This document shows positions 6,035-63,888 of a stretch of 64,000 nt of DNA, one piece after another (the stretch's first letter is position 1; every line of letters begins with the position of its first letter). A program made the translations under genes and the position numbers. The notes below the pieces were generated by a model. That model saw nothing but the letters and a program-made list of their open reading frames with translations. It was not told the origin of the DNA and did not search any database. Location: the IMG/VR virus record IMGVR_UViG_3300045988_093487, one strand, 5' to 3'. This DNA comes from a virus.

Positions 6035-6046
6035 GGAGGTATAAAT

Positions 6047-8577: not shown

Positions 8578-8601
8578 CTTTTCTGTTAAAATATGGTATT
8601 A
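8573..8601 (+). promoter_or_regulatory. conserved phage promoter
   Basis: aaaaaccccTTGACT, 17 bp spacer, TATTAT. Confidence 0.6.
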
Positions 8602-12384: not shown

Positions 12385-12412
12385 TGCAGGGTGTATGCCC
12401 TGCTTTTATATG
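12385..12412 (+). terminator. rho-independent terminator
   Basis: gcagggtgtatgccctgc hairpin plus ttttat. Confidence 0.55.
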
Positions 12413-12506
12413 GGGTATTAGTCTAACTGGATAAAACATCACTCTCCTAAAGTGAATTTCTCCGTTCGAGTCGGGGATGCCCCACCAAAATTTTTCTTAA
12501 AACCAC

Positions 12507-12535
12507 TTGACAAATCGCAAAAAGTATGATAGAAT
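12507..12535 (+). promoter_or_regulatory. conserved phage promoter
   Basis: aaaaccacTTGACA, 17 bp spacer, TAGAAT, then tataGGTGTTCCAAGGGGAAC leader hairpin. Confidence 0.6.
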
Positions 12536-12573
12536 ATAGGTGTTCCAAGGGGAACAGAAAGAAGGTATATTAC

Positions 12574-12786
12574 ATGAAATGTGACGCTGTAAAAGTACAC
12601 GAGTCGATTCCTATGACACCGAAGCGTCTTTATGAGTGGGCTGTTGCAAACGGTGTTGAAGATTGTCAGATGTATTTTCCGGCAGACGAGTTTATGACCG
12701 ATGTTGACTTGACAATGGATTGTATGCACAAAGAATATCGTGGTTTTGGTAAGAACAAGGAAATGGTAGTTAATATCTGTGGGTAA
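12574..12786 (+). CDS. hypothetical protein
   Basis: ATG downstream of the promoter and leader; 70 aa. Confidence 0.4.
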   Translation: MKCDAVKVHESIPMTPKRLYEWAVANGVEDCQMYFPADEFMTDVDLTMDCMHKEYRGFGKNKEMVVNICG

Positions 12787-13087
12787 TTGTACGATGGTTT
12801 TTGTATATGAACTGAAGTACGCTGATAAACGCAAATTAGTTCCAGTCACAGAGAGTCCGAAGACGAGGACAATTGCTACGGTGATTAACAAAGTTACTGG
12901 AAACGATGTTAAGCGTTTGTATAATCGCCTGAAGCGAAGTGGCAATATGCCACAGATGGAGCATCTAAAAGATGGGAACTACCGTATTATGTATATGGCA
13001 CTGCCTAATGGGTTGAAGTTTGACCCATTCTATAAAGGTGGAACATATTACAGAGGAAGGAGCGTATTTGACCGTGATGACACTTGA
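12779..13087 (+). CDS. hypothetical protein
   Basis: 102 aa ORF overlapping its neighbours. Confidence 0.3.
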   Translation: MGNCTMVFVYELKYADKRKLVPVTESPKTRTIATVINKVTGNDVKRLYNRLKRSGNMPQMEHLKDGNYRIMYMALPNGLKFDPFYKGGTYYRGRSVFDRDDT

Positions 13088-13862
13088 TGATAGAATGAAA
13101 ACTTATTATGAGGGTGCATATCGTGTTTATCTGACGCGGCGTATGCCAGTCATTATCCGAATCGACTCTCGTGCTGGGCACACCTTCACAAAGAATCTGA
13201 AAAAGCCTTTTGATGCAGTTTTCACTGCAACTATGCAGGATACAATGAAGTATCTGTGTGAAAACATTCAGGGCTGTGTAATTGGTTATACGCAGTCTGA
13301 TGAAATTACTTTGTGCCTTGTTGATTATGACAAGCTGGAAACCGATGCTTGGTTTGGTTATAATCTAAACAAGCTGGTAAGCCTTAGTGCATCAATGGCT
13401 ACGTTGGCGTTTAATAAGTATTTTGAACGTAATGCCAATAGAACCCTCACCAAGATGGCATTGTCCTCTGGTGTGAATAAGTTTGAAATTGACGCTTACT
13501 CTGCTACATTGGCAAAGTGTAAAGAAAAGGGTTTGTGCTTCGATTCTCGCGCCTTTAATATCCCGAAGGAAGAGGCATGTAACTGTTTCTTATGGAGACA
13601 GCTTGACGCTTCTCGAAACAGTATTCAGGCGGTCGGTCAGGCAAACTTCTCGCATACTGTTCTGAATGGCAAGAGTACGTCTGAAATTCAGGATATGTTG
13701 ATGACCGAAAAAGGCATCAACTGGAACGACCTTGCGACTGAATTAAAGCGTGGCTCTTGCTGTGTACGAGATGGTAATGGCTGGTCTATTGACCGCGAGA
13801 TTCCTAAGTTTACCGGCGAAGGCCGTGACTATATTGATAAGCTGGTTTTTGTTGGAGAATAA
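13077..13862 (+). CDS. Thg1-like tRNA-His guanylyltransferase / 3'-5' polymerase
   Basis: IRIDSRAGHTFTK...KPFD...GYTQSDEITL matches the Thg1 catalytic core (RxDGRxFHxF, KPxD, YGQSDE); start codon uncertain (13020, 13077 or 13095). Confidence 0.65.
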   Translation: MTLDDRMKTYYEGAYRVYLTRRMPVIIRIDSRAGHTFTKNLKKPFDAVFTATMQDTMKYLCENIQGCVIGYTQSDEITLCLVDYDKLETDAWFGYNLNKLVSLSASMATLAFNKYFERNANRTLTKMALSSGVNKFEIDAYSATLAKCKEKGLCFDSRAFNIPKEEACNCFLWRQLDASRNSIQAVGQANFSHTVLNGKSTSEIQDMLMTEKGINWNDLATELKRGSCCVRDGNGWSIDREIPKFTGEGRDYIDKLVFVGE

Positions 13863-13863
13863 A

Positions 13864-14064
13864 ATGCCTAAATATAGTTTTGATTTTAGGTACGCATACG
13901 GAAGTTGGACATTATGTAATTTGCGTTATGAGCATTATGACATTGATGCCCCTTCTGAAAAGGAAGCATTTAAAATCGCAGAAAAACAGTTCAATGAAAC
14001 GCATAAATCTGCAATATGCGACCTCTATCGTGATAGTGATGGATGGCATAAACTTCTTTGGTGA
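13864..14064 (+). CDS. hypothetical protein
   Basis: 66 aa ORF starting ATGCCTAAATAT. Confidence 0.35.
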   Translation: MPKYSFDFRYAYGSWTLCNLRYEHYDIDAPSEKEAFKIAEKQFNETHKSAICDLYRDSDGWHKLLW

Positions 14065-14339
14065 GTATGAACATTAACATTCCGTTTTCTTGCGGCGATG
14101 TTGTGTACGCTGTAAGACCTAAAAATATGTATAACAAGGAAGCCTATATTTATAAAGGCATTGTTATTTATATTAAAGTCGAGGTTGACCGTGACAATAA
14201 AGCTAAAATTATGGCGCACGTCCGTGACCTCGATGAGACTTTAAGCGTACCTAACATCATCTATCAGAGCAGTGACAGTATCTACGCCACTCTGGATGAA
14301 GCTAGGTCAGCTAATCCAGATGTTCTGATAAAAATTTAA
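14058..14339 (+). CDS. hypothetical protein
   Basis: 93 aa ORF. Confidence 0.4.
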   Translation: MVSMNINIPFSCGDVVYAVRPKNMYNKEAYIYKGIVIYIKVEVDRDNKAKIMAHVRDLDETLSVPNIIYQSSDSIYATLDEARSANPDVLIKI

Positions 14340-14357
14340 AAAATTTCCCAAAACCCC

Positions 14358-14386
14358 TTGACAAATGATAAAAAATCTGGTATAAT
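14358..14386 (+). promoter_or_regulatory. conserved phage promoter driving the tRNA operon
   Basis: aaaaccccTTGACA, 17 bp spacer, TATAAT; leader hairpin GAGGAACgaaaGTTCCTC. Confidence 0.65.
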
Positions 14387-14421
14387 AAGGGTGTCAAGAG
14401 GAACGAAAGTTCCTCAAATAT

Positions 14422-14494
14422 ACGTCGGTAGTTTAACGGTAAAACAATGGCCTCCAAAGCCAGAAGATGATGGGTTCAAATCCCTCCCGGCGTG
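14422..14494 (+). tRNA. tRNA-Trp(CCA)
   Basis: acceptor acgtcgg/ccggcgt; anticodon loop ctCCAaa; GGGTTCAAATCCC T-arm (T-stem weakly paired); no encoded CCA. Confidence 0.55.
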
Positions 14495-14501
14495 TTTATA
14501 T

Positions 14502-14576
14502 GCGCTTATCGTTCAATGGATAGGACAAAACTCTTCTAAAGTTTTTATGTGGGTTCAATTCCTACTAGGCGTACCA
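14502..14576 (+). tRNA. tRNA-Arg(TCT)
   Basis: acceptor gcgctta/taggcgt; D-stem gttc/ggac; anticodon stem aaact/agttt with loop ctTCTaa; T-arm gtggg-ttcaatt-cctac; 3' CCA encoded. Confidence 0.7.
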
Positions 14577-14578
14577 CA

Positions 14579-14662
14579 GACGCATACAGCAATCCATAAA
14601 TTTTAATGGTTTAAAAAGAATGCTTAAAACAATCTTTCACGGTTCGATTCCGTTCTGCGTCT
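14579..14662 (+). tRNA. atypical tRNA-like gene (possible Leu-TAA, non-canonical D region)
   Basis: acceptor agacgca/tgcgtct (7/7) and cggTTCGATTccg T-arm, but about 14 extra nt around the D-arm; candidate anticodon arm gaatg-cttaaaa-caatc. Confidence 0.3.
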
Positions 14663-14739
14663 AATTTTTAGTTATTCTTCATCTTTATCTGAACTCGATA
14701 GACACGAACAGCAACACTTTCTTTGTTCGCGCCACTAAT

Positions 14740-14812
14740 TGCGAATATAGTTTAGATGGTTAGAACGCCACACCAAAATGTGGAGACGTGGGTTCGAGTC
14801 CCACTTATAGTT
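14740..14812 (+). tRNA. tRNA-like element / probable tRNA pseudogene
   Basis: canonical D-arm (tagtttagatggttagaac) and T-arm (gtgggTTCGAGTcccac) but a 6-nt anticodon loop (ccaaaa) and a poorly paired acceptor. Confidence 0.3.
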
Positions 14813-14823
14813 GTGTCTAATAT

Positions 14824-14896
14824 GCCCGGTTAGTCAAGTTGGCTAAGACGAGTGACTCTCAATCACTAGGCGGCAGTTCAATCCTGCCACCGGGTA
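14824..14896 (+). tRNA. tRNA-Glu(CTC)
   Basis: acceptor gcccggt/accgggt; anticodon stem agtga/tcact with loop ctCTCaa; T-arm ggcag-ttcaatc-ctgcc. Confidence 0.6.
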
Positions 14897-14901
14897 CTTT
14901 A

Positions 14902-14929
14902 TGGTCGAGTAGCTCAGTTGGTTAGAGCA
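14902..14929 (+). pseudogene. 5' fragment of a tRNA gene (acceptor + D-arm only)
   Basis: ggtcgagtagctcagttggttagagcag matches the 5' third of the tRNA-Lys and tRNA-Ile genes in this cluster, then diverges; lies next to the endonuclease gene. Confidence 0.45.
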
Positions 14930-14944
14930 GTAAATAAATGAGGT

Positions 14945-15703
14945 ATGAATATGGTAAACTCAAAGATGAAGGGTAATATTGCAGAATCGCGTGTTCTTTA
15001 TGAATTTGTTTAGAGGGGAATACCAGTTTCAATACCTTATGGCGATAATGAACGCTATGATATGATAGCGGAATTTAATGGGAAACTGAACAAGATACAG
15101 ATAAAGTTTTGTAATCAACAGATAGTTGATGGTTCGATAAGTTGCCCATGTTCTAATATAGTGAGTCCATTAACAAAAAGTAAGCACAGGGAATTATATG
15201 TTAATGACGTTGATTATATGGCATTTTACATATATGTATGGGATGTTGCTGTTATAATTCCAACAAGTTACATAGGGAATAGGATTCAGATAAAGATTAG
15301 AAAAGAACGCACAAAGAATAATCAAACTACAGCATCTACTTTTGTTGATGATTTTACATTTGATAAGATTGTTGGTACAGATATTCGTAATGTGATAGAA
15401 GAGCAACAAAATACCTACGAGAAGGCATATAATAGATGTATTGATTGTGGATGTATCATATCTGATAGAGCCGTAAGATGTTTAAAATGCAGAAACTTGA
15501 AGCAATACGAAGAAACAGCGAATCCGAATATGATAGATAGGGATACGCTCAAATCTATGATTAGAAATACACCGTTTAAGCATATTGCATCTATATGTGG
15601 AGTCTCGGATAACTGTATTAGAAATTGGTGTAAAAGGTATAATCTTCCATACCGCACATCTGATATTAAGAAATATACAGATGACGAGTGGAATGATATA
15701 TGA
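14945..15703 (+). CDS. Hjc/PD-(D/E)xK-type homing endonuclease with C-terminal Zn-finger/HTH, containing an in-frame TAG
   Basis: MNMVNSKMKGNIAESRVLYEFV-TAG-RGIPVSIPYGDNERYDMIAEFNGKLNKIQIKF matches Hjc-like nuclease motifs (GxxxE...D...K) across the TAG; CIDCGC...CLKCR zinc finger; the ORF track only shows the part from 15062. Confidence 0.5.
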
Positions 15704-15843
15704 TTTTGTTAGCTAATTACAAAAACAATATCCTACTGACATAATAATACCCATTTTTCGGTTTGGATAACAGCGCATAGGTATAAAAGTCTGTGATTAT
15801 TGGATAGGCTAACAATGACTGCTGGAAAGACAGCGTTTTATAT

Positions 15844-15920
15844 GCGGCAGTAGTTCAACTGGATAGAACAATCGGCTACGAACCGATAGGTTGCGAGTTC
15901 AAGTCTTGTCTGCCGTACCA
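15844..15920 (+). tRNA. tRNA-Arg(ACG)
   Basis: acceptor gcggcag/ctgccgt; anticodon stem atcgg/ccgat with loop ctACGaa; T-arm gcgag-ttcaagt-cttgt; CCA encoded. Confidence 0.7.
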
Positions 15921-16042
15921 GATAAATGAATCTTAAATTACGCTGGACAAAGGATAGCCTTTTATGGGAGACTGTTACGACAGTAACCCTGATTATCGGT
16001 GATGATGCTAACTCATGAGAGTGCGTAAGCCGACATTTATAT

Positions 16043-16118
16043 GTGCGTGTACTCGAATTGGCATAGAGAACGGTCTAAGAAGCCGTGTTTTGTGGGTTCA
16101 AGTCCCACCATGCACACC
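16043..16118 (+). tRNA. tRNA with anticodon AAG (Leu-like, short variable arm)
   Basis: acceptor gtgcgtg/catgcac; anticodon stem acggt/gccgt with loop ctAAGaa; T-arm gtggg-ttcaagt-cccac; A73; CCA encoded. Confidence 0.55.
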
Positions 16119-16122
16119 AGAA

Positions 16123-16243
16123 TACAGTATGGTTTCAATGGTAAAACATCACCCAAATAAGAATGTGTCTATGCAGACATAAGCCGCAACTGTTTTTCTT
16201 AAAAGCCAAGGTGAAGATGTCGGTTCGACCCCGACTGCTGTAT
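16123..16243 (+). tRNA. tRNA-like gene with about 50-nt insertion in the anticodon region
   Basis: perfect acceptor tacagta/tgctgta; D-arm gttt-caatggta-aaac; T-arm gtcgg-ttcgacc-ccgac; the region between D and T arms is about 55 nt too long and contains the hairpin tgtct-atgc-agaca. Confidence 0.35.
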
Positions 16244-16250
16244 TTATTAT

Positions 16251-16326
16251 GCGAGATTAACTCAACTGGAAGAGTGCCACTCTTACAAAGTGGAAGGTAC
16301 AAGTTCGAGTCTTGTATTTCGCACCA
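16251..16326 (+). tRNA. tRNA-Val(TAC)
   Basis: acceptor gcgagat/atttcgc; D-stem actc/gagt; anticodon stem ccact/agtgg with loop ctTACaa; T-arm acaag-ttcgagt-cttgt; CCA encoded. Confidence 0.7.
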
Positions 16327-16413
16327 TACGACAGTTTATAAGCAAAACAAGTTCTGTCGGTGATAAGACAAAAGACTTAATTGGCGGTTGAGTGACCTTA
16401 AACTCACCATTAT

Positions 16414-16529
16414 GGCTGTGTAGCTCAACTGGTAGAGCGCGTAAAACCTATCTATTTTAGATAGTAACAGCTACACATTTTTCCATTATAAGGACGAGGT
16501 TTATGGTTCGAGTCCATACGCAGCCACCA
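16414..16529 (+). tRNA. tRNA-like gene with about 40-nt insertion
   Basis: acceptor ggctgtg/cgcagcc; canonical D-arm tagctcaactggtagagc; T-arm tatgg-ttcgagt-ccata; CCA encoded; extra hairpin tatcta-tttt-tagata between the D and T arms. Confidence 0.35.
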
Positions 16530-16585
16530 GAAAATCTAAAAGAAGGGAAATGAATCCGATGCAGTAGATTGATAATAACAATCCA

Positions 16586-16822
16586 ATGGTTTTCTTTCAA
16601 ATGTTGGGTGAAGTTGCTGGTGACAACATCATGAGCAAGATTTCCCGACTAAAGATTGGTGAAGAAAACGGAATTGTTACTTTATATCTAAGAGATGAAC
16701 GCGAACCGTTCAACGATAGTGAACTTAGACAGCTAAAATACATCTTAGAAAGATGGTATGATATAATTTCTTTTAGGCGTGAAGATAGGCTTACTATGTT
16801 AGATATGAAGGTAAGAAAATGA
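16586..16822 (+). CDS. hypothetical protein inside the tRNA cluster
   Basis: 78 aa ORF; start uncertain. Confidence 0.3.
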   Translation: MVFFQMLGEVAGDNIMSKISRLKIGEENGIVTLYLRDEREPFNDSELRQLKYILERWYDIISFRREDRLTMLDMKVRK

Positions 16823-16920
16823 CCCTCCTTTATTTTTATATATAAAAAGACACATCCAGCAAACTTTTATTAAATTTTGAGTAGCCTTATGGTTCAATTT
16901 TTAATGTGTCTTTTAGATTT

Positions 16921-17008
16921 GCCAGTGTAGTTCAGTTGGTAGAACGCGGGTTTTGTAATCCCGATGCCGAAAGGGTTCTCGCAGGTTCAAGTCCTGTCAC
17001 TGGCTCCA
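16921..17008 (+). tRNA. tRNA with anticodon TGT (Thr-like) and a 17-nt variable region
   Basis: acceptor gccagtg/cactggc; D-arm gttc-agttggta-gaac; anticodon stem cggg(t)/(t)cccg with loop ttTGTaa; T-arm gcagg-ttcaagt-cctgt; CCA encoded. Confidence 0.5.
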
Positions 17009-17009
17009 T

Positions 17010-17085
17010 GCCACTTTAATTCAGTAGATAGAATGATGCGTTCGTACCGCATACGTCGTAGGTTTAATTCCTACAGGTGGCTCCA
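17010..17085 (+). tRNA. tRNA-Thr(CGT)
   Basis: acceptor gccactt/aggtggc; D-stem attc/gaat; anticodon stem atgcg/cgcat with loop ttCGTac; T-arm gtagg-tttaatt-cctac; CCA encoded. Confidence 0.7.
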
Positions 17086-17222
17086 ATCGCACCTATACCG
17101 TGGTAGAATAGGTATAGGCAAGTATTTTAACTACCGTGTCCATAGAGTTAATGGACTTGGGAGGTACTGACAAGACAGAAGAGCAAGTACCATGCACGTG
17201 GGCGGGTATTCGTGCTTTCATT

Positions 17223-17300
17223 TGCGTTCGTAGCTCAGTTGGTTAGAGCAATCGCCTTTTAAGCGATGGGTCGGGAGTTCGAGTCTCTTCGGGCGCACCA
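17223..17300 (+). tRNA. tRNA-Lys(TTT)
   Basis: acceptor gcgttcg/cgggcgc; D-arm tagctcagttggttagagc; anticodon stem atcgc/gcgat with loop ctTTTaa; GTTCGAGTC T-loop; CCA encoded. Confidence 0.7.
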
Positions 17301-17453
17301 CGCGGTAAGTAGTTTTCGAGTTGCGACTATTGTAGCTGGTATTCGTAAAAAATATAGTAAATGCGTGATATGACAGTATGCCGTGTTTGTGTTAAGGAAC
17401 AAGCACATTGCGGATAAACCGATGACTGCTGGAAAGACAGCAATTTATGTTTC

Positions 17454-17530
17454 CATAGCTCAGTTGGTTAGAGCGCAATCCTGATAAGATTGAGGTCGAA
17501 TGTTCAATTCATTCTGGAAACACCACTTAT
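17454..17530 (+). tRNA. tRNA-Ile(GAT)
   Basis: acceptor gtttcca/tggaaac; anticodon stem caatc/gattg with loop ctGATaa; T-arm gaatg-ttcaatt-cattc; CCA encoded. Confidence 0.7.
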
Positions 17531-17648
17531 TTTTGAAGTATTATAAAGATACTTTGAAATCTGATAGAAAATATCGTGTATTCACTAGGTATGAAACCGC
17601 TGGATGCAACGATACTCGCGTTATGCCTTTAGTAATCAAGGCATAATA

Positions 17649-17739
17649 TGTGGTAGTACCCAAGAGGTTGAAGGGGCTTGCTTGGAAAGCAAGTAGGCGG
17701 CGTATACCGTGCAGGGGTTCAAATCCCTTCTACCACGCC
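17649..17739 (+). tRNA. tRNA-Ser(GGA), type II
   Basis: perfect acceptor gtggtag/ctaccac; 3-bp D-stem; anticodon stem cttgc/gcaag with loop ttGGAaa; 19-nt variable arm; T-arm agggg-ttcaaat-ccctt; G73 and CCA encoded. Confidence 0.7.
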
Positions 17740-17866
17740 ACGACCGTAAAGATGAACAAAATAGAGCATACGGTGTTACAAAACCGTCTCGGAGTGATTG
17801 TACCACAGGGAGATTTAACGGAGTATATGCTCGATGTGTGGTTCGCAAAACCTAAATTGCAAATGT

Positions 17867-17941
17867 GCGTCATGCGCCAGACGGCTAGGCGAGAGACTGC
17901 AAATCTCTTTTAGATTGGTTCGACTCCAATATGACGCTCCA
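17867..17941 (+). tRNA. tRNA-Cys(GCA)
   Basis: acceptor gcgtcat/atgacgc; anticodon stem agaga/tctct with loop ctGCAaa; T-arm attgg-ttcgact-ccaat; CCA encoded. Confidence 0.7.
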
Positions 17942-18258: not shown

Positions 18259-18970
18259 ATGAAGAAACTGCTAGGAGCTATCATTGCTTTGCTTACAACA
18301 TTCGCAATAATTTGCGCTGTGGCAGTTCCGTCAAAGGCGGCAGATTTTAGTGACAAGTTTGAATTATACGAATCGTGGAATAACAATCTAAAAGTATATA
18401 CAAGAGAAGTGAGCGAGGAACTTGATGTTCCGTATTCTGCGTTAGTTGCTATTATCTATCACGAGTCAAGATTTAAGAACGATGTTGGCACAAGCTATAT
18501 TGGCCTAATGCAAGTTGGATGTACGTCAGATATTTTGAATTTTCTTTCAAATAATGGACTAAAAACATCTAAGAAAGGTTTGTATAACCCAGAGACAAAC
18601 ATTAGAGCTGGTGCATTGATTCTTAGATACGCAATGGATAAAGCCACAAATATGGAAGATGCGTTCTATATTTATACTTGCGGCGAGGGTGCTGTAAAAA
18701 AGCGAAAGGCGAACGGTCAGAAGAAAAATAAAGCTACTATTGAAATTACAGAGCTTTATTACGAATATTCTGAATACTTTGCTGAATAGGGTAAATCTGA
18801 TTATCGACAGTTCCTATTAGATGAACTAAATGGGGTTCAGTCAGAACTCGACGAGACGAACGGTTTGCTTCAGTCTTGTGAAGTGTATCAGTCCGACTAT
18901 TACAACCAGCAGTTGTTGTTTATAGAGCAAAAGATAGACTTCATAAATTCTGAATTAAAAAATTTAGAAT
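18259..18970 (+). CDS. lytic transglycosylase (SLT domain) with signal peptide; in-frame TAG at 18787-18789 then a 60-codon extension
   Basis: signal peptide MKKLLGAIIALLTTFAIICAVA; SLT motif ESRFKNDVGTSYIGLMQV; after the TAG the frame stays open for 60 codons (GKSDYRQFLLDELNG...ELKNLE) to a TAA at 18968-18970, just before the next promoter. Confidence 0.55.
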
Positions 18971-18976
18971 AACCTC

Positions 18977-24786: not shown

Positions 24787-24798
24787 TGAGGTGATGTA

Positions 24799-26456: not shown

Positions 26457-26681
26457 AACAATCCTGCCCAAGTAAAAGCGAGTTATATGCTGGGAAGTGC
26501 TTAGAGCCTCAGTTACCAAAGTGTGACAATACTGAGGATTGCACAATCAGCAGGCACGATAAGTTCTGCCTCAACGACTATGGGAATATCCCAACTGTCA
26601 TAGAGTGATTTATGACAGTAACCTCGCTGAAATGATATAGTCTGGTCTGCATTTAATAGTGCAGAGTCAAGCAGAAATGAC

Positions 26682-26710: not shown

Positions 26711-26782
26711 ATATGTAAAGGTGGTGATTGTATGGCGAAAGCAAGATATACGAAAGTGTAGTTCTATAATGAAATACTCCGG

Positions 26783-27799: not shown

Positions 27800-27809
27800 C
27801 AAAATTACG

Positions 27810-39611: not shown

Positions 39612-40099
39612 ATTGCAATACTGCTGTCATAAAGGTAAACGAGCTTTTGGAGAAGTTTATTGGTGGGGAGATTTTCTTTGACCAGCTTGACGACTCGGTT
39701 AGAACGAGTAAAGAAATCCTTGAAGCAATCTATAATGATGTTAAGGCGAGGTATCCTCACAATAAATATAAGTATGTTGTAACTGGTAAAACCGGCATTG
39801 CATATTTCAATTATGGTTTTACTACAGACCTGATTGTTCCGGGTGGCTTACGTAAATCTAATACGAGGTTAGACCTTTCTGAATATGTAAAAGCTGGCGA
39901 AAATTACGTTCTTATTGATGATTCCTATTTTATGGGGCGCACAGAGGCCGTTATTCGGAAAGCGCTCAATGAGTGTGGTGCTAGTTTAGCTGGAACGCTT
40001 GTCTTCTATGACGGTTGTATTGAGAAGCGTCCTTGGGTGACTTCTATGTATCGTTACTACGATAACTACGATGTTTTAGGTAATAGATTGGAGAAATAG
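39608..40099 (+). CDS. phosphoribosyltransferase-like (type I PRT fold) protein
   Basis: YVLIDDSYFMGRTEAV resembles the PRPP-binding loop; ends in TAG with TGA two codons later. Confidence 0.45.
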   Translation: MNCNTAVIKVNELLEKFIGGEIFFDQLDDSVRTSKEILEAIYNDVKARYPHNKYKYVVTGKTGIAYFNYGFTTDLIVPGGLRKSNTRLDLSEYVKAGENYVLIDDSYFMGRTEAVIRKALNECGASLAGTLVFYDGCIEKRPWVTSMYRYYDNYDVLGNRLEK

Positions 40100-55510: not shown

Positions 55511-56140
55511 TTATCTAACAAACATTGCTTTCCAAGTATTCATACCTACAATTCCATCGGCAGTTAGATTATGTGCTCTCTGGAATTTTTTTACCTCATC
55601 TTCAGTGTTCTTTCCAAATTGACCATCAATAGGTATACCAAGTTTCTTTTGAACGAATTTTACAGCACTTGCTTTACCAACATTCGTTCCGCGTTTGATA
55701 ATTGGCATTAGGTCAACTCTATAATATTCGTATACGCCAGCTCTTGCACAAAGCCAAAATGTTTCTCTTGGTCTGGTATCAACATGGATAAAGTTCGTGT
55801 TACCGTAGTAGTACACTCCAACACCATTCGTGATAGTTTGTGCGTAATATGCCAATTCAACAGCGGAAACACCAGCAATCTGGATATCTGCCGCCATACC
55901 TTTTACATGATAGGAACCAGCAGAACCACCGACCCTGCGGTTATGCTCTGGGGTACGATATGCAGAATTTATTACAACCGGCTTACCAAAATAGTCACGG
56001 ATTTTTTGTAGAACTTCAACGAGAGCTGTATCAATAAGAACGGAGTCAGAACCATCCTTACAGGCGAACTCTTTTACAGTAAAATTTGTAGATAATTTTG
56101 TATTACCGTGTTCCTTTAGACTGTATGTTTTAACAGCCAT
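55511..56140 (-). CDS. endolysin: M15 peptidase (VanY-like) with C-terminal peptidoglycan-binding domain
   Basis: SAYRTPEHNRRVGGSAGSYHVKGMAADIQI (M15 zinc peptidase); C-terminal FQRAHNLTADGIVGMNTWKAM (PG_binding_1-like). Confidence 0.7.
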   Translation of the reverse strand: MAVKTYSLKEHGNTKLSTNFTVKEFACKDGSDSVLIDTALVEVLQKIRDYFGKPVVINSAYRTPEHNRRVGGSAGSYHVKGMAADIQIAGVSAVELAYYAQTITNGVGVYYYGNTNFIHVDTRPRETFWLCARAGVYEYYRVDLMPIIKRGTNVGKASAVKFVQKKLGIPIDGQFGKNTEDEVKKFQRAHNLTADGIVGMNTWKAMFVR

Positions 56141-56583
56141 TATACCATCCCTTTCTTAGATAAATAATATTTAGGTTTTTCTTCGTGGAACAAGAAGTAT
56201 CTTAAATAATCGTCAACGATAATAGCAACGATGCATAAGAAAAACCACAGAATAGTAAACGGTAAGCAAATCTAACCAAGAATATTAAATGGTAGATTTG
56301 AATAATCCCAAATGTGAAGACCCAGAAATAGATTTAGTATAATTCCTGCGATAAACTCACAACACGTTACAACAAGTGCACCAATTATAGACTGTTTCCA
56401 AATTTCCATTTTCCAAGGTAGATAATTATTTAATCCACCAATGACAACAAAACAAAAACCTCCAAGAACGCCCATTGTCCAATGAGTATGTCCGCGACAA
56501 AGCATCTCTATTCCGCAATATGCAAAACCACCAATTAAAAACAAGATTATAATTTTAAGTGATTCTTTTGCAAGATTTCTCAT
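56141..56583 (-). CDS. membrane protein with in-frame TAG; readthrough form ends in a TAATG overlap with the endolysin start
   Basis: 103 codons, TAG at 56272-56274, then 43 more in-frame codons including a TM helix (ICLPFTILWFFLCIVAIIV) ending at TAA 56140-56142, which overlaps the endolysin ATG. Confidence 0.55.
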
Positions 56584-56592
56584 ACAATCACC

Positions 56593-57228
56593 TTATTCAT
56601 ATTTAATCTCAATATTGTCAACTTCATTTTTAGATTTGCATTCTTTAATTTTTACTTCAATATCTTGTTGCTTAGATACTATTGGTTTTACATATTTAAC
56701 AATAGCGAGAGACAGCGCCGCAAGATTTTCGTAAGTCCACGCCCTACATCTATCTCCTGTTGTATTCCATGTAAGTTCCATAGGTTCCCCGATTGTAGAT
56801 GAAATTTGATAGGCGGCAAGGTTGCTTGTCAATAGCGCTTGTTTTTCTTCTGTAACAGAATAATATTCTCCATCAATCCATTGGAGTGGATGAGACGCAA
56901 GATACTCTTTAAGGTCGGTTTTGGATTTTGCGATTTTAGTATTTTTAATTTCGTTTAGTTTTGCTTCTAGCTCTTCTGCTGTATATAAGATGTATTTTTG
57001 AATTGGGATTTCTTCATCCCAAGCTCCTTTTGCTTCTACCGCTTCAACATCAACAATTTTTTTTACATCTTTGCCGCCATTTGGATATTCGGCAATGGTT
57101 TCATAATGAAATTTTTCTTTTACTTCATCAACTTTGTCATGGTGGATTGTTTTAATGTCATTTATAAGATATCCAAGTTCAAGATTAGGGTTGAAAATTT
57201 CATTCCCAGTTTCATCAATTATTTCCAT
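56593..57228 (-). CDS. hypothetical protein (structural?)
   Basis: 211 aa ORF. Confidence 0.45.
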   Translation of the reverse strand: MEIIDETGNEIFNPNLELGYLINDIKTIHHDKVDEVKEKFHYETIAEYPNGGKDVKKIVDVEAVEAKGAWDEEIPIQKYILYTAEELEAKLNEIKNTKIAKSKTDLKEYLASHPLQWIDGEYYSVTEEKQALLTSNLAAYQISSTIGEPMELTWNTTGDRCRAWTYENLAALSLAIVKYVKPIVSKQQDIEVKIKECKSKNEVDNIEIKYE

Positions 57229-57256: not shown

Positions 57257-58054
57257 TTACGCTACCACATGCCCAGTGTCGTCCACCGTCGCGTCCTGCG
57301 GCAGAATTATACAGGGGCGGATACCAGCCAAGTCGTAGCAGGCGAAAGTACTCCGGTCGCCAACGGAGTCGATAGTAATGGCATATCCACTGTCGGCACA
57401 GAATGGAGAGCGGAGCCACCAGTATGTGGCAGAGCCGTCGAGGAATGCGATACGCTTAGAATCCGAGCTATCATCCGCACAGCCCTTGAAATAGGCCAGC
57501 TCCGCACCTTCGCCGCTCGGCATATAGGGGAAGTTGAAACTCGTTTCGGTCGCACTGAGCAGGAAAATCTTCGCAGACAGGCCGTTCGAGCCGCTGGTGA
57601 CAATCGTAGACGTGTTGCCGCCTTTGCGGTACGGGAGCTTTACCTGCTTGATGGCGTTCTTGATGTTCGGCTCGAGAAGGTTTAGGAATGTGCTGTTCAG
57701 GTAGGAGTGGATGGTGCTGTTGGCGTAGTCGTTAGTGCCCGAACTACGCCACTGGCTGTTTTCGTAGATGTCTTTCATCAGCAGCCACGTGCCATTGCAG
57801 CTTGCGTCATAAATACCAGCATCCGGAATGCCCTGATGCACCACCAGCCAGTCGTAGTCCTTGCCGCTCACGGCGATTTTGACGGTCTTACCCACTTCGT
57901 AGCCGCCAAGCAGCGTGCCGCGCTGATACCACAATCTAGCAACCCCATTCACACCAATGTATGCCTTCTGGACTTGACGTGCTTTACCGTCTACTCCGAT
58001 ATACATCTTGGAGATGCTTTTCGCCACCCCCCCAATTCCGATATATGCACTCAT
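57257..58054 (-). CDS. putative receptor-binding protein with DUF1566/C-type-lectin-like C-terminus; candidate DGR target
   Basis: C-terminal ATYWWLRSPFCADSGYAITIDSVGDRSTFACYDLAGIRPCIILP resembles the DUF1566 ending (YW..S...A...G...VRP); the whole gene is far more GC-rich than the phage; GC-driven overlapping ORFs in other frames are artefacts. Confidence 0.5.
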   Translation of the reverse strand: MSAYIGIGGVAKSISKMYIGVDGKARQVQKAYIGVNGVARLWYQRGTLLGGYEVGKTVKIAVSGKDYDWLVVHQGIPDAGIYDASCNGTWLLMKDIYENSQWRSSGTNDYANSTIHSYLNSTFLNLLEPNIKNAIKQVKLPYRKGGNTSTIVTSGSNGLSAKIFLLSATETSFNFPYMPSGEGAELAYFKGCADDSSDSKRIAFLDGSATYWWLRSPFCADSGYAITIDSVGDRSTFACYDLAGIRPCIILPQDATVDDTGHVVA

Positions 58055-58070
58055 ATTGATTACCCCCTGT

Positions 58071-58730
58071 TTATCCTGAAATTGCAGTCGTCAATTTCCC
58101 TGCAATCACCTGTATCTGAGCATTCGCAGCAGTCAAAATATTTTCTACGTTTGTCTGCAAGTCAGAAGGCAACGTATCACCATACCGAATTGCAGAAATA
58201 GTTTCAATTTTATCCTCTCGTTTAATCCATTGACGTAATGCATTACAATATGTCGTTTGCTGAGTAACAAAACCTTTTGCGGCGATGTATAGTTCCATTA
58301 TATCAGAAGCACTATACATTTCGCATGGTTCACCATCTGCATGGTATGGGTATTCAGTCGCTCCAAGAGTGATTGCAGAAAAGATTCCGTCAATATTAGT
58401 TTGGTCATTTGCTGTTAAACTAAAATGTTTCTTACCAACACTTAGCTCGACATCAACACCGCTGTATATTACTTGTTCACAAATAGACGACATTTCGTCT
58501 AGCTTACTCTGACGTACTTCGTCAATGGTTGGCTCTACAGATTCTGGTTCTAGCGTAGGTTCCGGGACTTCTCCATATTCGTAGACAGTGTAGTATCCAT
58601 TATCCATGGAAATGCCCCAATACTTTTCGCCGGGTTTAGCAGAACCATTATGTTCATCCACCGCACTCTCAATGGAAGAATAATCCGCATTTTTAATCTC
58701 AACCTTATAGTTTGGGATAATTTTATCCAT
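58071..58730 (-). CDS. hypothetical protein (structural?)
   Basis: 219 aa ORF with RBS aaggagg. Confidence 0.45.
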   Translation of the reverse strand: MDKIIPNYKVEIKNADYSSIESAVDEHNGSAKPGEKYWGISMDNGYYTVYEYGEVPEPTLEPESVEPTIDEVRQSKLDEMSSICEQVIYSGVDVELSVGKKHFSLTANDQTNIDGIFSAITLGATEYPYHADGEPCEMYSASDIMELYIAAKGFVTQQTTYCNALRQWIKREDKIETISAIRYGDTLPSDLQTNVENILTAANAQIQVIAGKLTTAISG

Positions 58731-59104: not shown

Positions 59105-62100
59105 TTAACCAACTCTTTTCCAGATGTGCACATAGTAGGCGGCGGGCTGCACGGTATAGCTGCGACCGTAGATTGAGTTCGAGCGGGAAGCATCAAAGTA
59201 AACATCATACGTCGAACCTGACGTACCACTGTAGCCACCCCAAGAAGTATTGATTTCTACGAATTTTAAAGCTCCCGATGATTTCAAAGACGCTTTTGAA
59301 CCACGGAATGGGGAGGACTCTGCGGTTGCTTCTATTAAGCTGCCCGTGATGTTCGGCAGTCCGGCCTCCACCGTGCTTCCCGCTGTGTAGCCTGTGCCAG
59401 CACCCATCAGCACGCGGTTAAATGCAATCTCCTGCCATGTACCGCCGAACAGTGCGGCGGGACTGGTAGTGCTGACTGTTTGAAAAATACTGCCCACCGG
59501 GTAGGCAGACAGGCCGCTGTCCGCAGAAAGTGTTCCGTCCGCATCGACCGTCAGACCGCTGCCCACCTTCACGCCGCCCAGCGTGGTGGCGGTGGCAGCA
59601 GGGAGGGTGTATTCCTGAGCATCAGCACTCAATACACCTTTATTAGAAACTTTTAGCCCCTCTCCTACAATGATGCCACCTAGCTCTGTCGTCGTTGCAG
59701 GGGGCAGCATTGCTCCACCAATAGGGGTTTGACCAAAACTCATAAGGATATCTTCTCGGATAATGTAATAAAAAGCTTTAATAGATTCCGTTGGGATGTT
59801 ACGAGCACGGATTCTCAAATAATTAGGTAATGATTCTGTTGAAGTAAAATAACATTTTTTAGCGACTACATTACTATCTGGTGCAATGACAAGTGCAACA
59901 CAATCACTTCCTGTAATTCCTGTAGCTACAATGTCAATATAATTCGGATATGCAGAGTTACTATCTTGGTTCCATCCAGTTGTGGGAATCGTAATAGATA
60001 CAAGATTTATTTTTTCTGCTGCCTCATAACCAAGTGCTCCGTCAACGTTGTCTTTTATTAAACTAATCAAGCCTTTATTACCAACTGTAATATTGTCTCC
60101 AATTTGTACAATACCGGCATTAGTTCTCGTAGCATAATTAGTGTCTGTAACAACGCTTGTTTTAGAATAAGGAGTGATAGCTTGGTCAACAGAGGGGGCA
60201 TTTGCGGAGTATTTTAATACATATCCCCAATTGTCTTTTTTAGCTATAGATACATTGATAATAGAATTAAAGAATGTAGAGTCCGTGTTTATCCATAGTT
60301 CTGCATTACTCTGACCGTTTCCACCCGATGTTGGGATTAAATAGAAAAACTCTTTTTTTGTTGAATTGTTTTCGATATCTACATCGGAAGATTTTAGCTT
60401 ATCATCATACATAATATAAGAGAAAATGTAGGCTGTAGACAAATCGTTACTATTTGTTTGTGCTAAGTCATGGATGAATAATGTAATATTCTTACTATAA
60501 GCGACAGAGTTATTTTCTGTTGAAACAATTGTAGGACAGTTAATCTCAATTTTTATTAAATCACCGTCTGATGTGTTAGAAATGTTTCCTACATGAAACC
60601 ATGTTTGTCCGGTTACAGTAGACGCAGGGATGGTTTCTGTTAATATATATCCTTTTGGAGCAGCGCCGTCAATTGTGCTCGTCTCATTATTGCCCTTTGT
60701 GATGATGATTTTATCCCCTGTTGGACGCAAATCTTTGATGTACGTCGCATCTATTTGTTGACCAATAGAGTCATTTGTTGCGCTGTCTGCGCTAGTCGCA
60801 GTGTCAGCGTTACCAGTTAGATTACCAACAAACTTAGCATCACCGCTCATAGTAATGTCGCCAGTCATTGTACCGCCACTAAGTTTCAACGTGCCAACTA
60901 ATGCGTTTGCTACATTAGTCTCGCTTGTTTTAGCATTAGTTTCACTAATCTTCGCTTTATCTTCAGATGCCTTTGCTGCGTTTTGACTTACAAGAGCAGC
61001 GGCGGCAGATGCTGCGGCATCATTAGCAGATTGCTGTGAATTATCCGCATAGCTACTTGCGTTCTGTTCTGAAGCAGCAGCGTTAGTCTCGCTTGTTTTA
61101 GCATTAGTTTCACTAATCTTCGCTTTATCTTCAGATGCCTTTGCTGCGTTTTGACTTACAAGAGCAGCGGCGGCAGATGCTGCGGCATCATTAGCAGATT
61201 GCTGTGAATTATCCGCATAGCTACTTGCGTTCTGTTCTGAAGCAGCAGCGTTAGTCTCGCTTGTTTTAGCATTAGTTTCACTAATCTTCGCTTTATCTTC
61301 AGATGCCTTTGCTGCGTTTTGACTTGCAAGAGCAGCGGCGGCAGATGCAGCGGCATCATCAGCAGATTGCTGTGAATTATCCGCATAGCTACTTGCGTTC
61401 TGTTCTGAAGCAGTTGCGTTTATTTCTGATTGCTTTGCCGCCTTTTCTGATGCCAATGCTTTGGTTTCACTGGTTTTAGCAGCATTTTGAGAATTTAAAG
61501 AGGCTTGTGCCGAATTTGCAGAATCACTTGCAGAACTAGCCGAATCATCAGCGCTTGTCTTAGATGCGTTTTCTGAAGCTTTCGCGTTTTGTTCCGAAAT
61601 CTTAGCATTAGCTTCTGATGTAGCAGATGCAGTCTATGAAGCCTTTGCTTTATTTGCACTATCCGCTGCATTTGTCTCCGATGTCGCGGCATTCTGCTCA
61701 GACTGTTTAGCATTAGCTTCAGAAGTAGCGGCGGCTTGTGCAGATTTTTGAGCAGCAATCTGATAATTATGTGCATTTATTTCAGATTGTCTAATACTCT
61801 CAGCGGAAGCAGCGGCGGCATCTTTATATGCGTTTGCGTTAGCTTCAGAAGCGGCTGCATTACTAGCTGATACGGCTGCTGCATTTTTATAACTTTCTGC
61901 ATTGACTTCAGAAGCCTTTGCGTTGTCTTCAGACTTCTTAGCGGCCTCGGCAGCATTCATAGCGTCATCGTGGTAGCTACCAATTATTTTTTGGAATGTT
62001 GCAATAGCATCTGTCCAAACATCTGGATTTTTTGATGCAGAACCAACATCGAGCAGTCCTTTTTCGATATTCAAAACCTATGGTTTTGTATGTAAAATAT

Positions 62101-62461
62101 ACTAACCTTCTTCTGCCGCATCAGTAATGCGCCCATCATATATAGAAATATCATAAGTCAAAGTACCACTCGCGGCAGTTGCCTTTTGACTTAAATACCA
62201 AGGGAATATAATATATCTTTTTTCTCCATCAGTCTTAACTTCGCGAGTGTCGGAAAAGAAAGTATCAAATTGACCAAGAGCATTAACATACCGAATAGCT
62301 AAGATTTTATCTGTAATATCAACATCATCAATAACAGCCGGAATCTTAAACTTCAGAATACGCGAGTCGTTATCGTCAACAACAGCGATATTTTCCGTTG
62401 CGCATGGTACAATATCTCTATTTCTAATTTCAAAAATATATGAACTCAAATATTTCACCAT
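59105..62461 (-). CDS. tail fibre protein (about 1119 codons) containing three in-frame TAG codons
   Basis: ORFs 62102-62461, 61634-62074 and 59105-61456 are all in one frame, separated only by TAG codons at 62102-62104, 62078-62080 and 61634-61636; the Ala/Ser-rich repeat sequence continues unbroken across the 61634 TAG; no ATG or usable RBS exists for the internal segments; start ATG 62461 has RBS gaagga. Confidence 0.65.
60915..61420 (-). repeat. three near-identical tandem 168-bp (56-aa) repeats inside the tail fibre gene
   Basis: period 168 bp from ttagtctcgcttg at 60915, 61083 and 61251; encodes ASEQNASSYADNSQQSANDAAASAAAALVSQNAAKASEDKAKISETNAKTSETNAA three times. Confidence 0.8.
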
Positions 62462-62477
62462 CCTTCAAAAATATAAT

Positions 62478-62510
62478 TAGCATCCTCTAAACGAGGATGC
62501 CAACAGTTTA
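62478..62510 (-). terminator. rho-independent terminator (minus strand)
   Basis: minus-strand hairpin gcatcctcgtttagaggatgc followed by taattatattttt. Confidence 0.6.
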
Positions 62511-62515: not shown

Positions 62516-62663
62516 AGATAAACTTTTCACCAGTAATATATTCATACTCTTCTGGAGTAATCCATCCCTTAGTGGTCACATTGTAAACCATCTGCTTAGT
62601 CCAGAATCCAGAATCGTAGTAATATTTAGCCTTCTTGCCATGAACGGACAATTCCATATCAGT
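62516..62663 (-). CDS. XkdX-like small phage protein
   Basis: 48 aa MTDMELSVHGKKAKYYYDSGFWTKQMVYNVTTKGWITPEEYEYITGEKFI with the XkdX-like ITxEEY..ITGE ending; family assignment from memory. Confidence 0.4.
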
Positions 62664-62671
62664 CATATATT

Positions 62672-62837
62672 AGTCCTCCATTCCTACTTCATCAGAAGCA
62701 ACTGCGTCAGTTGGCAAATCAATATCAGACATCACGGCAATATACTCAATCAGTGATTGCTGATTGCTAATCTGTGCATTACGATATTCTGCCATTTTCT
62801 CCTCATGAGGAGACATGATTGCCTTTTCAAATACCAT
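62672..62837 (-). CDS. hypothetical small protein
   Basis: 55 aa ORF between the reverse transcriptase and the XkdX-like gene. Confidence 0.3.
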
Positions 62838-62841
62838 AATT

Positions 62842-63888
62842 CTACCTCCATAATTCGTAATAGAATTGATTCATCCTTTGTATTAGCTTATATGAATTAC
62901 CATGTTCTGCATGAGCAACCCAACAGCTATAACATTGGTCTATCTTTTCTTTAGTTCTACGACCTTTTACAACAAGTTTAACCATTTTGCGCAATTTACG
63001 CTTTTCGTTCTTAACATTATCACCAAGAATTGACATAACAACTTTGCCAGTTTCAGTAAGCCTGAACTTAAATCCCAAGAAAGGAATACCCTGACCAACT
63101 CTATACAGTTTAGTTTTCTTAGGATGTAGTTCAAGACCAATTTTAGCTAATTCTTCTTGAATCTCGTGCATACACTTAATCAAGTAATTTCTGTCGTGAT
63201 GAATAAGAACAAAATCATCCATATATCTGATATAATACTTAATGTGCATACGTTCTTTAATCTTATGGTCAAGTTTATCCAGAACAGAAATGCCAGCAAT
63301 CTGAACGACTTGGCTACCGGGATTATACCCGGTATCACCGAGATATTGTTCATTTAATATTCTACAGACTCTATCTGCATATTCTGCTGGTAATTTCTCT
63401 CTAAACAAGGCATTTGTTGTATCGTGCCGCATATTATCATAATAGTGTTTAATGTCGCATTGAAGAACCCAAGCATCAAGACCGTTCTTTCTATAGCATC
63501 TTTGCAGATGACATTTTAAACGACCTCTAGCAAAATCAGTTCCTTTTCCTTTTTGACAAGCACAATTATCATAAATAAAACTTCGAGTCATTAACGGATA
63601 CACTATATTGTCATTAAGGCTACGTTGATACACTCTGTCTCTAAAAGCTATGCTTACAGCAATTCTTTCTTTTGGATGAGTGATATGAACCGTCTTAGTC
63701 GGGCGAGGTTGGTATGTTCCGTCTGCTAGTTGCTTTTCCAATTTAAGAACCTGTTCAATTCCATGAATATAGAAATTAGCAACAGATTCTTTCCAGCTAA
63801 CATTTTTCTTACACTTATATAAAGAATCAAGTAGGTGCTCGAAGTCTAGGACATTTACTACTTGATTCGATTCCTAATTGTTACTCAT
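62842..63888 (-). CDS. reverse transcriptase, DGR-type, with in-frame TAG at codon 5
   Basis: GTYQP, RIAVSIAFRDRVYQRSL, QCDIKHYYDNM (motif A), GYNPGSQVVQIAGI (SQ variant of the QGxxxSP motif, the DGR hallmark), YIRYMDDFVLI (YxDD); the conserved N-terminus LDFEHLLDSLYKCKK... is reachable only from ATG 63888 through the TAG at 63874-63876; the ORF track starts at an internal TTG; the gene ends with TAG at 62842-62844 and a TGA 5 codons later. Confidence 0.65.

Follow-up and report, generated by a model that had tools for sequence, protein, structure and literature searches.

How a phage could express a tail-fibre gene whose frame is crossed by three TAG codons is the question raised by one locus in IMGVR_UViG_3300045988_093487, a 64,000-nucleotide stretch of DNA (hereafter, the window) from an uncultured human-gut tailed phage with a genome of ~115 kb. 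On the minus strand, positions 62461 to 59105 form a single frame of 1119 codons that holds three in-frame TAGs and no TAA or TGA before its terminal TAA (59105-59107). An earlier, sequence-only reading had described three ORFs here that share one frame and are split only by TAGs, and our translation of window:59105-62461 bears this out. Since the other two frames of the same interval hold 39 and 113 TAA and TGA codons, an open frame of this length is far beyond chance. That reading was also right that the Ala/Ser-rich repeat runs across the TAG at codon 276 (...ANKAKAS-TAG-TASATSE...) and that only TTG starts can be proposed for the downstream pieces, as the code-11 ORF finder splits the gene into 62102-62461 (ATG), 61634-62074 (TTG), and 59105-61456 (TTG). 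Its further claim that these downstream pieces possess neither an ATG nor a usable ribosome-binding site stood only in part: in-frame ATGs exist at codon 168 (61960) and next at codon 532, but they lie 40 and 256 codons beyond the TAGs, and no Shine-Dalgarno sequence precedes the first of them (upstream, CCACGATGACGCT).

We propose that the fibre is one gene read through its TAGs and that the phage follows genetic code 15, with TAG specifying glutamine instead of stop; from sequence comparisons, we put the probability of this at roughly 0.93. The ribosome would then insert an amino acid at each of the three TAGs to yield an 1118-aa fibre protein. The features that bear on this reading are collected in Table 1.

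Table 1. Features of the window discussed in the text, with the evidence or remarks attached to each.
Feature	Position	Strand	Evidence or remarks
Tail-fibre gene, 1118 aa + TAA	59105..62461	-	Translation, homologues, PHROG profiles, dN/dS
Fibre, N-terminal anchoring domain	aa 1 to ~140	-	
Fibre, TAG codon 120	62102..62104	-	CAG in L001 and L006; Gln in distant uninterrupted P0126-P0130
Fibre, TAG codon 128	62078..62080	-	TAG in all close relatives; Ala in distant uninterrupted homologues
Fibre, TAG codon 276, within Ala/Ser-rich repeat	61634..61636	-	CAG in L001 and L006
Fibre, Ala/Ser-rich coiled-coil with three 168-nt tandem repeats	60915-61418	-	
Fibre, central domains, then C-terminal receptor-binding region		-	Weak Gp10_C match, 30.2 bits
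Fibre peptides around TAG sites (predicted, table 15)			…AEEGQYILHTKPQVLNIEK… and …ANKAKASQTASATSEANAK…
PF06541 membrane protein, holin-like position adjoining endolysin	56140..56592	-	In-frame TAG at aa 104
DGR-type reverse transcriptase	62827..63888	-	TAG codon 5 (MSNN-TAG-ESNQ…); second TAG 5 codons before TGA
SLT transglycosylase	18259..18972	+	TAG codon 177, then conserved 60-codon extension
PDDEXK_5 endonuclease	14945..15703	+	TAG codon 23
tRNA array, 13 canonical tRNAs	12412..17941	+	None with anticodon CUA
Insertion-bearing tRNA genes, conserved, 34-49 nt in anticodon loop	16122-16244, 16414-16526	+	Within tRNA array
Degenerate tRNA-like elements	14578-14663, 14741-14812	+	Within tRNA array

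The gene was identified as a tail fibre by matches to several PHROG tail-fibre families and by its position in a tail/baseplate-lysis module, where its neighbours are XkdX, DUF4376 tail-fibre-like proteins, a holin-like protein, and an endolysin. The earlier view that it is a single gene running through three TAGs is upheld by four kinds of evidence. Segments two and three match successive stretches of the same PHROG tail-fibre profiles, and in this frame all segments show purifying selection, with dN/dS of 0.12-0.20. Many proteins of 300-1000 aa also begin with the N-terminal domain, and distant fibre homologues of 240-949 aa that share it are uninterrupted across both N-terminal TAG positions (…SQYILHTKPATF…). 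Among closer relatives, L001 and L006 carry CAG at codons 120 and 276 while keeping TAG at 128. The same three TAGs recur in other human-gut samples, in five independent assemblies (L002, L003, L004, L005, and L007), which excludes sequencing error, and some Logan contigs' gene calls join the fibre pieces into single genes, fitting an alternative-code model. If the standard code held and the TAGs were real stops, the products would be three small proteins, each made separately, or just the first 119 aa. The ORF finder and the gene calls of several assemblies do yield pieces of 119, 146, and 726 to 783 aa, and a suppressor tRNA was not found. However, the pieces lack starts with an ATG and a Shine-Dalgarno sequence near their beginnings, the 7-codon piece between TAG 120 and TAG 128 is too short for a gene, two of the sites are CAG in relatives, the distant homologues are single proteins, and the tape measure and baseplate genes of relatives are TAG-interrupted in the same way, so that we consider true stops extremely unlikely.

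The identity of the inserted residue is suggested by the codons found opposite TAG in related late-gene loci, which were TAG in 224 cases, CAG in 154, CAA in 77, and all others together in 89. When the two codons of a pair differed, the partner of TAG was CAG or CAA in 231 of 320. Since CAA is two mutations away from TAG, the pairing of TAG with glutamine codons reflects amino-acid equivalence and not mutational proximity. By this comparison, TAG and the glutamine codons CAG and CAA replace one another freely from strain to strain, and the three fibre TAGs are almost certainly read as glutamine. Codon 128 would not by itself name the residue, given the alanine of distant homologues, although homology extends on either side of the TAG. 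The assertion that this phage decodes TAG as an amino acid is sustained by relatives and homologues; its description as direct evidence is not, as the basis is comparative. The same data bear on whether the TAGs could be nonsense mutations in pseudogenes of a decaying or defective phage, which is how the premature stops seen in several genes under code 11 might be read. We find this scarcely credible, since the in-frame stops are always TAG and never TAA or TGA, the sites are kept across samples, dN/dS is ~0.15 downstream of the TAGs, their partners are glutamine codons, two-step CAA included, and dozens of human-gut samples contain near-identical contigs.

Beyond the fibre, TAG is nearly absent as a terminator in the window. 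The stops of 78 plus-strand ORFs were TAA in 47, TGA in 28, and TAG in three. These three comprise a spurious ORF that overlies tRNA genes, the read-through gene for SLT, and an ORF with TGA as its next codon. TAG ends at most 1 of ~85 genes, the one followed by TGA, and there is no unambiguous case. A comparison of coding density under alternative codes, which the sequence-only reading had proposed, gave a gain with TAG as sense only: late-region density rose from 83.2% under code 11 to 91.9% with TAG as sense, compared to 83.3% with TGA and 84.2% with TAA as sense, and in relatives reading TAG as sense raised it from 82-86% to 93-96%. Moreover, 73 TAG sites compared with 616 CAG sites showed no special sequence context, which favours general reassignment over signal-dependent read-through. 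TAG might instead be a leaky stop, where near-cognate read-through of low efficiency sets the dosage by yielding mostly truncated products and a small amount of full-length fibre. Such a device would need no suppressor tRNA, in keeping with the failure to find a tRNA(CUA), and the phage lineage encodes a tRNA-Gln(UUG); glutamine is the usual near-cognate insertion at UAG under limiting RF1. On the other hand, losses would compound over three TAGs within a single essential structural gene, relatives such as L010 hold many more TAGs in late genes, the sites lack a read-through context, and TAG has been removed from terminator positions genome-wide, as reassignment predicts and leaky stops do not. 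We therefore judge a leaky stop very unlikely and favour reassignment of TAG to glutamine.

Other TAG-interrupted genes in the window are consistent with this reassignment. At the TAG site of the PF06541 membrane protein, glutamine is found in 120 of 120 homologues (LLGQICLPF motif), and when glutamine is inserted in the PDDEXK_5 endonuclease, the Pfam match spans the TAG and covers profile positions 2-137 of 138. In the relative L033, the SLT extension carries two further TAGs where the window has glutamine codons. By analogy with the recoded phages of Borges et al. (10.1101/2021.08.26.457843), genes that the standard code can express would be translated first, and amber suppression switched on in the infected cell would then make the TAG-bearing structural and lysis genes translatable, unlocking the late fibre, tape measure, baseplate, and holin-like genes. 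Since such genes would be translatable only after suppression is on, we propose that their TAGs may act as a timing lock. A strict rule of TAGs in late genes only fails, since the plus-strand SLT and PDDEXK_5 genes also carry them. For annotation, table 15 is needed, as table 11 fragments the fibre, tape measure, baseplate, holin-like, reverse transcriptase, and other genes, and mis-calls the receptor-binding protein as three ORFs.

What might decode TAG was addressed by searching for a tRNA(CUA) with ARAGORN (default, relaxed, and intron modes), the Rfam tRNA model, and a custom anticodon-loop scan. A phage suppressor tRNA(CUA), which is frequent though not universal in code-15 phages, was found neither in the 64-kb window nor in loci of relatives that cover most of the rest of the ~115 kb genome, and the custom scan for YU-CUA-RN loops between 5-bp stems gave no tRNA-like match. 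The window and relatives hold ~23 tRNA genes in total, none with a CUA anticodon, including a second array in relatives (Met, Asn, Gln-UUG, Pro, Asp, Ala, Leu, Ser, and Ser) that was reached by walking IMG/VR relatives and ENA/Logan contigs; the start of contig 122016 matches the RNA-ligase gene over 77 nt. A "tRNA-Stop(tta)" called at 14716-14812 by relaxed ARAGORN was rejected as a spurious parse, its acceptor stem being broken, and single-segment excision by hand from the insertion-bearing tRNAs never gave a canonical CUA loop. Rfam reported no Theta (HDV-like) ribozymes in the tRNA region, and the window ORFs scanned included no RF2 or GlnRS gene, and no RF2/aaRS "code-change module" was seen. 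Candidate decoders are a non-canonical or processed phage tRNA, a tRNA-Gln that would read UAG as a near-cognate once RF1 is neutralized, and a suppressor encoded in unsampled sequence.

The first two candidates correspond to a tentative idea, which we consider unlikely, that the lineage recodes TAG to glutamine without a canonical amber-suppressor tRNA. By one route, an insertion-bearing tRNA (16122-16244 or 16414-16526) or a degenerate tRNA-like element could serve as an unconventional decoding RNA, matured by the phage's RNA toolkit of RNA ligase, PNK-like kinase, Thg1-like enzyme, and CCA-adding enzyme. By the other, host RF1 would be neutralized and tRNA-Gln would then read UAG. If true, either route would offer a concrete, tractable model for the ~60% of TAG-recoded phages where no suppressor tRNA has been found. 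Published surveys explicitly call open the question of how TAG is decoded without an evident suppressor tRNA, and this lineage is a clean case for asking it.

The recoding of TAG to glutamine here is a further example of a phenomenon already documented in gut phages. Borges et al. (bioRxiv 10.1101/2021.08.26.457843) described TAG-recoded gut-phage clades, such as Garnet, Topaz, and Agate, with Firmicutes-infecting clades among them, and, among TAG-recoded genomes, detected a suppressor tRNA for TAG in only 40%, so the missing suppressor tRNA here has precedent. Like those phages, ours is a low-GC gut phage with TAG in structural and lysis genes, depletion of TAG stops, and exchange of TAG with glutamine codons; unlike them, its lineage has no close GenBank phage relative, and no RF2/aaRS module was seen in the window. 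Code-15 crAss-like phages likewise use TAG for glutamine in late genes (Yutin et al., PMC7886860), and metaproteomics has confirmed that crAss-like TAGs are translated as glutamine (Peters et al., PMC9523058). However, crAss-like phages are podovirus-like and infect Bacteroidota, whereas in the window phage the tape measure is long and the XkdX/fibre module is of a kind typical for tailed phages of Firmicutes. Code 15 and many tRNAs are shared by Lak megaphages, and the "enigmatic" conserved introns of some Lak tRNA genes (Devoto et al., PMC6784885) resemble the insertions in the window's two tRNA genes; Lak phages are ~540 kb, infect Prevotella, and possess suppressor tRNAs and RF2, neither of which was found for our ~115-kb phage. 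The ~136-kb human-gut phage phAss-1, of the proposed Phassvirus, carries TAG in 41 ORFs, structural ones included, but has three suppressor tRNA genes (Babkin et al., PMC10607447), where we found none; no match in our phage searches was attributable to phAss-1.

Against GenBank phages, megablast with the fibre and with window 20-44 kb and tblastn with the fibre N-terminal domain gave no match, and the best primase-helicase match was at 37% amino acid identity. A word-indexed protein search with the fibre N-terminus returned only same-lineage code-11 fragments. The set of recoded phages gains a lineage that is widespread in the human gut and absent from the GenBank phage collection searched. 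Judged by XkdX, PF06541, and an M15 endolysin that carries PG_binding_1, its host is probably a Firmicute. When bacterial genomes were searched with the terminase, the sole match was a 2.3-kb contig from the bin of a Bacteroidales MAG, and this says nothing about the host.

The reverse transcriptase next to the fibre raised the idea that a diversity-generating retroelement diversifies the fibre, which we rejected since there is no VR within the window and the VR lies in a DUF6273 gene outside it. Both TR and VR sit just beyond the window, past 64000. In the near-identical contig L002, a VR is found at 7727-7848 and its TR at 8473-8594, and 17 of the 17 internal mismatches between them fall at TR adenines.

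Minus-strand translation of 62461-59105 yielded a single frame of 1119 codons and confirmed the observation of the sequence-only reading: TAG interrupts the frame at codons 120, 128, and 276, no other stop occurs before its end, and a terminal TAA closes it at 59105-59107. Since the two alternative frames of the same stretch hold 39 and 113 TAA and TGA codons, chance does not explain so long an open frame. An ORF finder run under the standard bacterial code (code 11) returned 62102-62461 (ATG), 61634-62074 (TTG), and 59105-61456 (TTG), which is exactly the split into three adjacent, TAG-separated ORFs that had been described. The accompanying claim that the downstream segments have no ATG or usable ribosome-binding site held only in part, as in-frame ATGs are present at codons 168 (61960) and 532, but they lie far from the segment starts, and the ATG at codon 168 has no Shine-Dalgarno sequence. 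Fibre length differs between strains (1119 vs 1061-1062 codons) because they carry different numbers of copies of a 168-nt tandem repeat (60915-61418).

Features discussed in the text, in window coordinates
Feature	Position	Strand	Remark
RNA ligase	2-1123	+	
RlaP nucleotidyltransferase	1773-2615	+	
AAA_33/KTI12-like kinase	6035-6952	+	
Thg1-like enzyme	13020-13862	+	
Degenerate tRNA-like element	14578-14663	+	
Degenerate tRNA-like element	14741-14812	+	
PDDEXK_5 endonuclease	14945-15703	+	TAG at codon 23
tRNA gene with anticodon-loop insertion, Gly(acc) reading	16122-16244	+	Rfam 29.1 bits; 55 nt where 6 expected
tRNA gene with anticodon-loop insertion, Glu(ttc) reading	16414-16526	+	Rfam 45.9 bits; 51 nt where 11 expected
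tRNA-Thr(UGU)	16921-17008	+	88 nt
SLT transglycosylase	18259-18972	+	TAG at codon 177
DNA polymerase III alpha, two ORFs	24790-26457, 27800-29344	+	
355-aa ORF	26732-27799		
CCA-adding enzyme	49346-50812	+	
M15 endolysin with PG_binding_1	55514-56155	-	
PF06541 membrane protein	56140-56592	-	TAG at residue 104
DUF4376-like	56596-57228	-	
DUF6273	57260-58054	-	
DUF4376	58074-58730	-	
Fibre	59105-62461	-	between XkdX and DUF4376
Fibre TAG, codon 276	61634-61636	-	in-frame
Fibre TAG, codon 128	62078-62080	-	in-frame
Fibre TAG, codon 120	62102-62104	-	in-frame
Terminator-like hairpin	62476-62504	-	
XkdX	62517-62666	-	
DGR-type reverse transcriptase	62827-63888	-	

We found that the same three TAGs occur in five independent human-gut assemblies (L002, L003, L004, L005, and L007), which excludes sequencing error. 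In L001, a 97% identical IMG/VR relative on a contig of 148.6 kb, and in the Logan contig L006, codons 120 and 276 are CAG, while codon 128 is TAG in both. An exhaustive HMMER search returned 246 relatives of the 119-aa first segment at E <= 0.001, most of which have this domain, often N-terminal, as part of a protein 300-1000 aa long. Distant homologues of 58-61% identity run uninterrupted (P0126, 281 aa; P0127, 686 aa; P0129, 949 aa; and P0130, 574 aa), and their …SQYILHTKPATF.V.EGLLDTG… aligns with …EG-TAG-YILHTKP-TAG-VLNIEKGLLDVG… in the window. Segments 2 and 3 match successive stretches of the same PHROG tail-fibre profiles, such as positions 94-221 and 179-326, respectively, of phrog_1419. 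Estimated by the Nei-Gojobori method for the window against L001, dN/dS is 0.15 upstream of the first TAG, 0.20 from TAG 128 to TAG 276, and 0.12 downstream of TAG 276, and therefore every segment is translated in this frame. The homologues, the PHROG profiles, dN/dS, and CAG in relatives thus support the proposal that the pieces form one fibre gene in which TAG encodes an amino acid.

Sequence comparisons across the genome indicate that TAG is a sense codon genome-wide and identify Gln as the encoded amino acid. The in-frame TAG of the PF06541 protein falls within its Pfam match, and Gln occupies this column (motif LLGQICLPF) in 120/120 homologues retrieved (61-93% identity); a few of the closest may be code-15 translations, in which TAG is read as Gln, but Gln is invariant out to the most distant. 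In five groups of related late-gene loci, whose codon pairs are not phylogenetically independent, TAG lay opposite TAG 224 times, CAG 154 times, CAA 77 times, and all other codons 89 times, with GAA the commonest of these others (n=14). TAG thus interconverts with both CAG and CAA, and since CAA is two substitutions away from TAG, this signal reflects amino-acid equivalence and not mutational neighbourhood. Signal-dependent read-through would be an alternative, but the sequence context is the same at 73 distinct TAG sites and 616 CAG sites, which argues against it. The coding-density comparison between codes that had been proposed also gave a gain specific to TAG: for the late region (coding strand), density rose from 83.2% under code 11 to 91.9% with TAG as sense, compared to 83.3% with TGA and 84.2% with TAA as sense, and in the relatives it rose from 82-86% to 93-96%.

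Individual genes show the same pattern. The DGR-type reverse transcriptase begins MSNN-TAG-ESNQ…; its conserved RT N-terminus follows this TAG, and under the standard code the earliest start is 79 codons in. With Gln inserted, the PDDEXK_5 endonuclease matches profile positions 2-137 of 138 (75 bits). The SLT transglycosylase most likely runs on for 60 codons past its annotated end at TAG, as 12 nucleotide differences in this extension between the window and the relative L033 change only 3 residues, two of them by Gln↔TAG exchange. This gene is annotated everywhere as 176 aa, and the L033 extension has two further TAGs where the window has Gln. The stops of 78 greedy plus-strand ORFs were TAA (47), TGA (28), and TAG (3), the last ending a spurious ORF over tRNA genes, the SLT read-through gene, and 39608-40099, where a TGA follows one codon later.

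The window encodes 13 canonical tRNAs (12.4-17.9 kb), and relatives carry a second array upstream of terminase (Met, Asn, Gln(UUG), Pro, Asp, Ala, Leu(UAG), Ser, and Ser). ARAGORN (default, relaxed, and intron modes), the Rfam tRNA model, and a custom anticodon-loop scan found no amber-suppressor CUA anticodon in the window, in relatives' loci that, beyond the part equivalent to the window, tile ~51 kb of IMG/VR contig 094428 (115 kb), or in ten further tRNA-array variants, a search that covered all but ~33 kb of the 148-kb relatives and, of the window's own genome, the 64 kb of the window. Likewise, neither RF2 nor an aaRS was found among the scanned window ORFs or the annotations of related contigs. 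The absence of a suppressor has precedent, since one was detected in only 40% of TAG-recoded phages (Borges et al., 10.1101/2021.08.26.457843), and its absence in a well-sampled, tRNA-rich genome bears on an acknowledged gap in the understanding of TAG decoding by such phages.

Four odd tRNA-like genes are present in the window and conserved in the relatives compared, and hand inspection yielded no canonical CUA loop from any of them. Two bear anticodon-loop insertions and were missed by both default ARAGORN and the whole-window Rfam run, while in intron mode ARAGORN interprets one as Glu(ttc) with an intron of 34 nt and the other as Gly(acc) with an intron of 49 nt. The former has perfect acceptor, D, and T arms, encodes CCA, and is kept in 10/10 relatives; the latter has all three arms intact. 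The code-15 Lak phages (PMC6784885) likewise have 'enigmatic' tRNA introns. The two degenerate elements fill a gap of 247 nt, itself conserved, that separates tRNA-Arg(UCU) from tRNA-Glu(CUC). One combines a good acceptor stem and a good T arm with an aberrant D region, and the other has a 6-nt anticodon loop and three acceptor-stem mismatches; in L033, the latter occurs in a variant form whose loop is CTACAAA. tRNA-Thr(UGU) has a variable loop with ~15 extra nt, an unusual trait among class I tRNAs. Five RNA/tRNA repair or maturation genes (RNA ligase, RlaP, kinase, Thg1-like, and CCA-adding enzyme) are clustered in the window, and relatives also encode PTH2 and a protein with a YqeY/GatB-like domain, upstream of the point where the window starts (L012).

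TAG→Gln recoding itself is already well known, having been established in crAss-like phages, with metaproteomic confirmation (PMC9523058), Lak phages (PMC6784885), phAss-1 (PMC10607447), and many further gut phage clades (10.1101/2021.08.26.457843), and the pattern described here matches these published phages. Gene calls on some Logan contigs already join the fibre pieces into single genes, which suggests that their callers apply an alternative code. The lineage is present in IMG/VR and many gut assemblies, and the GenBank phage collection holds no close relative (best primase-helicase match, 37% aa identity). In the two-phase model, standard-code-compatible genes are expressed first, and the establishment of amber suppression then allows the translation of late genes that contain TAG (Borges et al., 10.1101/2021.08.26.457843). 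The phage of the window would follow the same early/late scheme. Since TAG also occurs in a few plus-strand genes (SLT and PDDEXK_5), this partition is not strict.

The fibre gene belongs to a minus-strand tail-to-lysis module that begins with XkdX and ends with the M15 endolysin. A strong terminator-like hairpin (GCATCCTC…GAGGATGC, then a T-run) separates XkdX from the fibre start, so the fibre may have its own promoter or need antitermination. Further upstream, the reverse transcriptase and a template/variable repeat (TR/VR) pair just past 64000 constitute a diversity-generating retroelement (DGR). In the near-identical contig L002, these 122-nt repeats lie at 7727-7848 (VR) and 8473-8594 (TR), and 17/17 of their internal mismatches fall at TR adenines. 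A DUF6273 gene encoding 402 aa carries the VR at its 3' end, and a second DUF6273 gene, in the window, shows no VR.

Elsewhere, the DNA polymerase III alpha gene is parted into two ORFs by a 355-aa ORF that may be a homing endonuclease and may contain a TAG at codon 10, near its own start. Outside the window, an 853-aa protein encoded upstream of the late genes in a relative (L027, 6307-8865) has a DADFDGD motif that recalls NADFDGD, the catalytic motif of β' in multisubunit RNA polymerases, and the protein may be a YonO-like phage RNAP. At window position ~1, immediately before the RNA-ligase gene, several independent assemblies break, and one IMG/VR contig starts with 77 nt that duplicate the 5' part of this gene (L013, L014, and L026), so that a genome terminus or a repeat may lie here.
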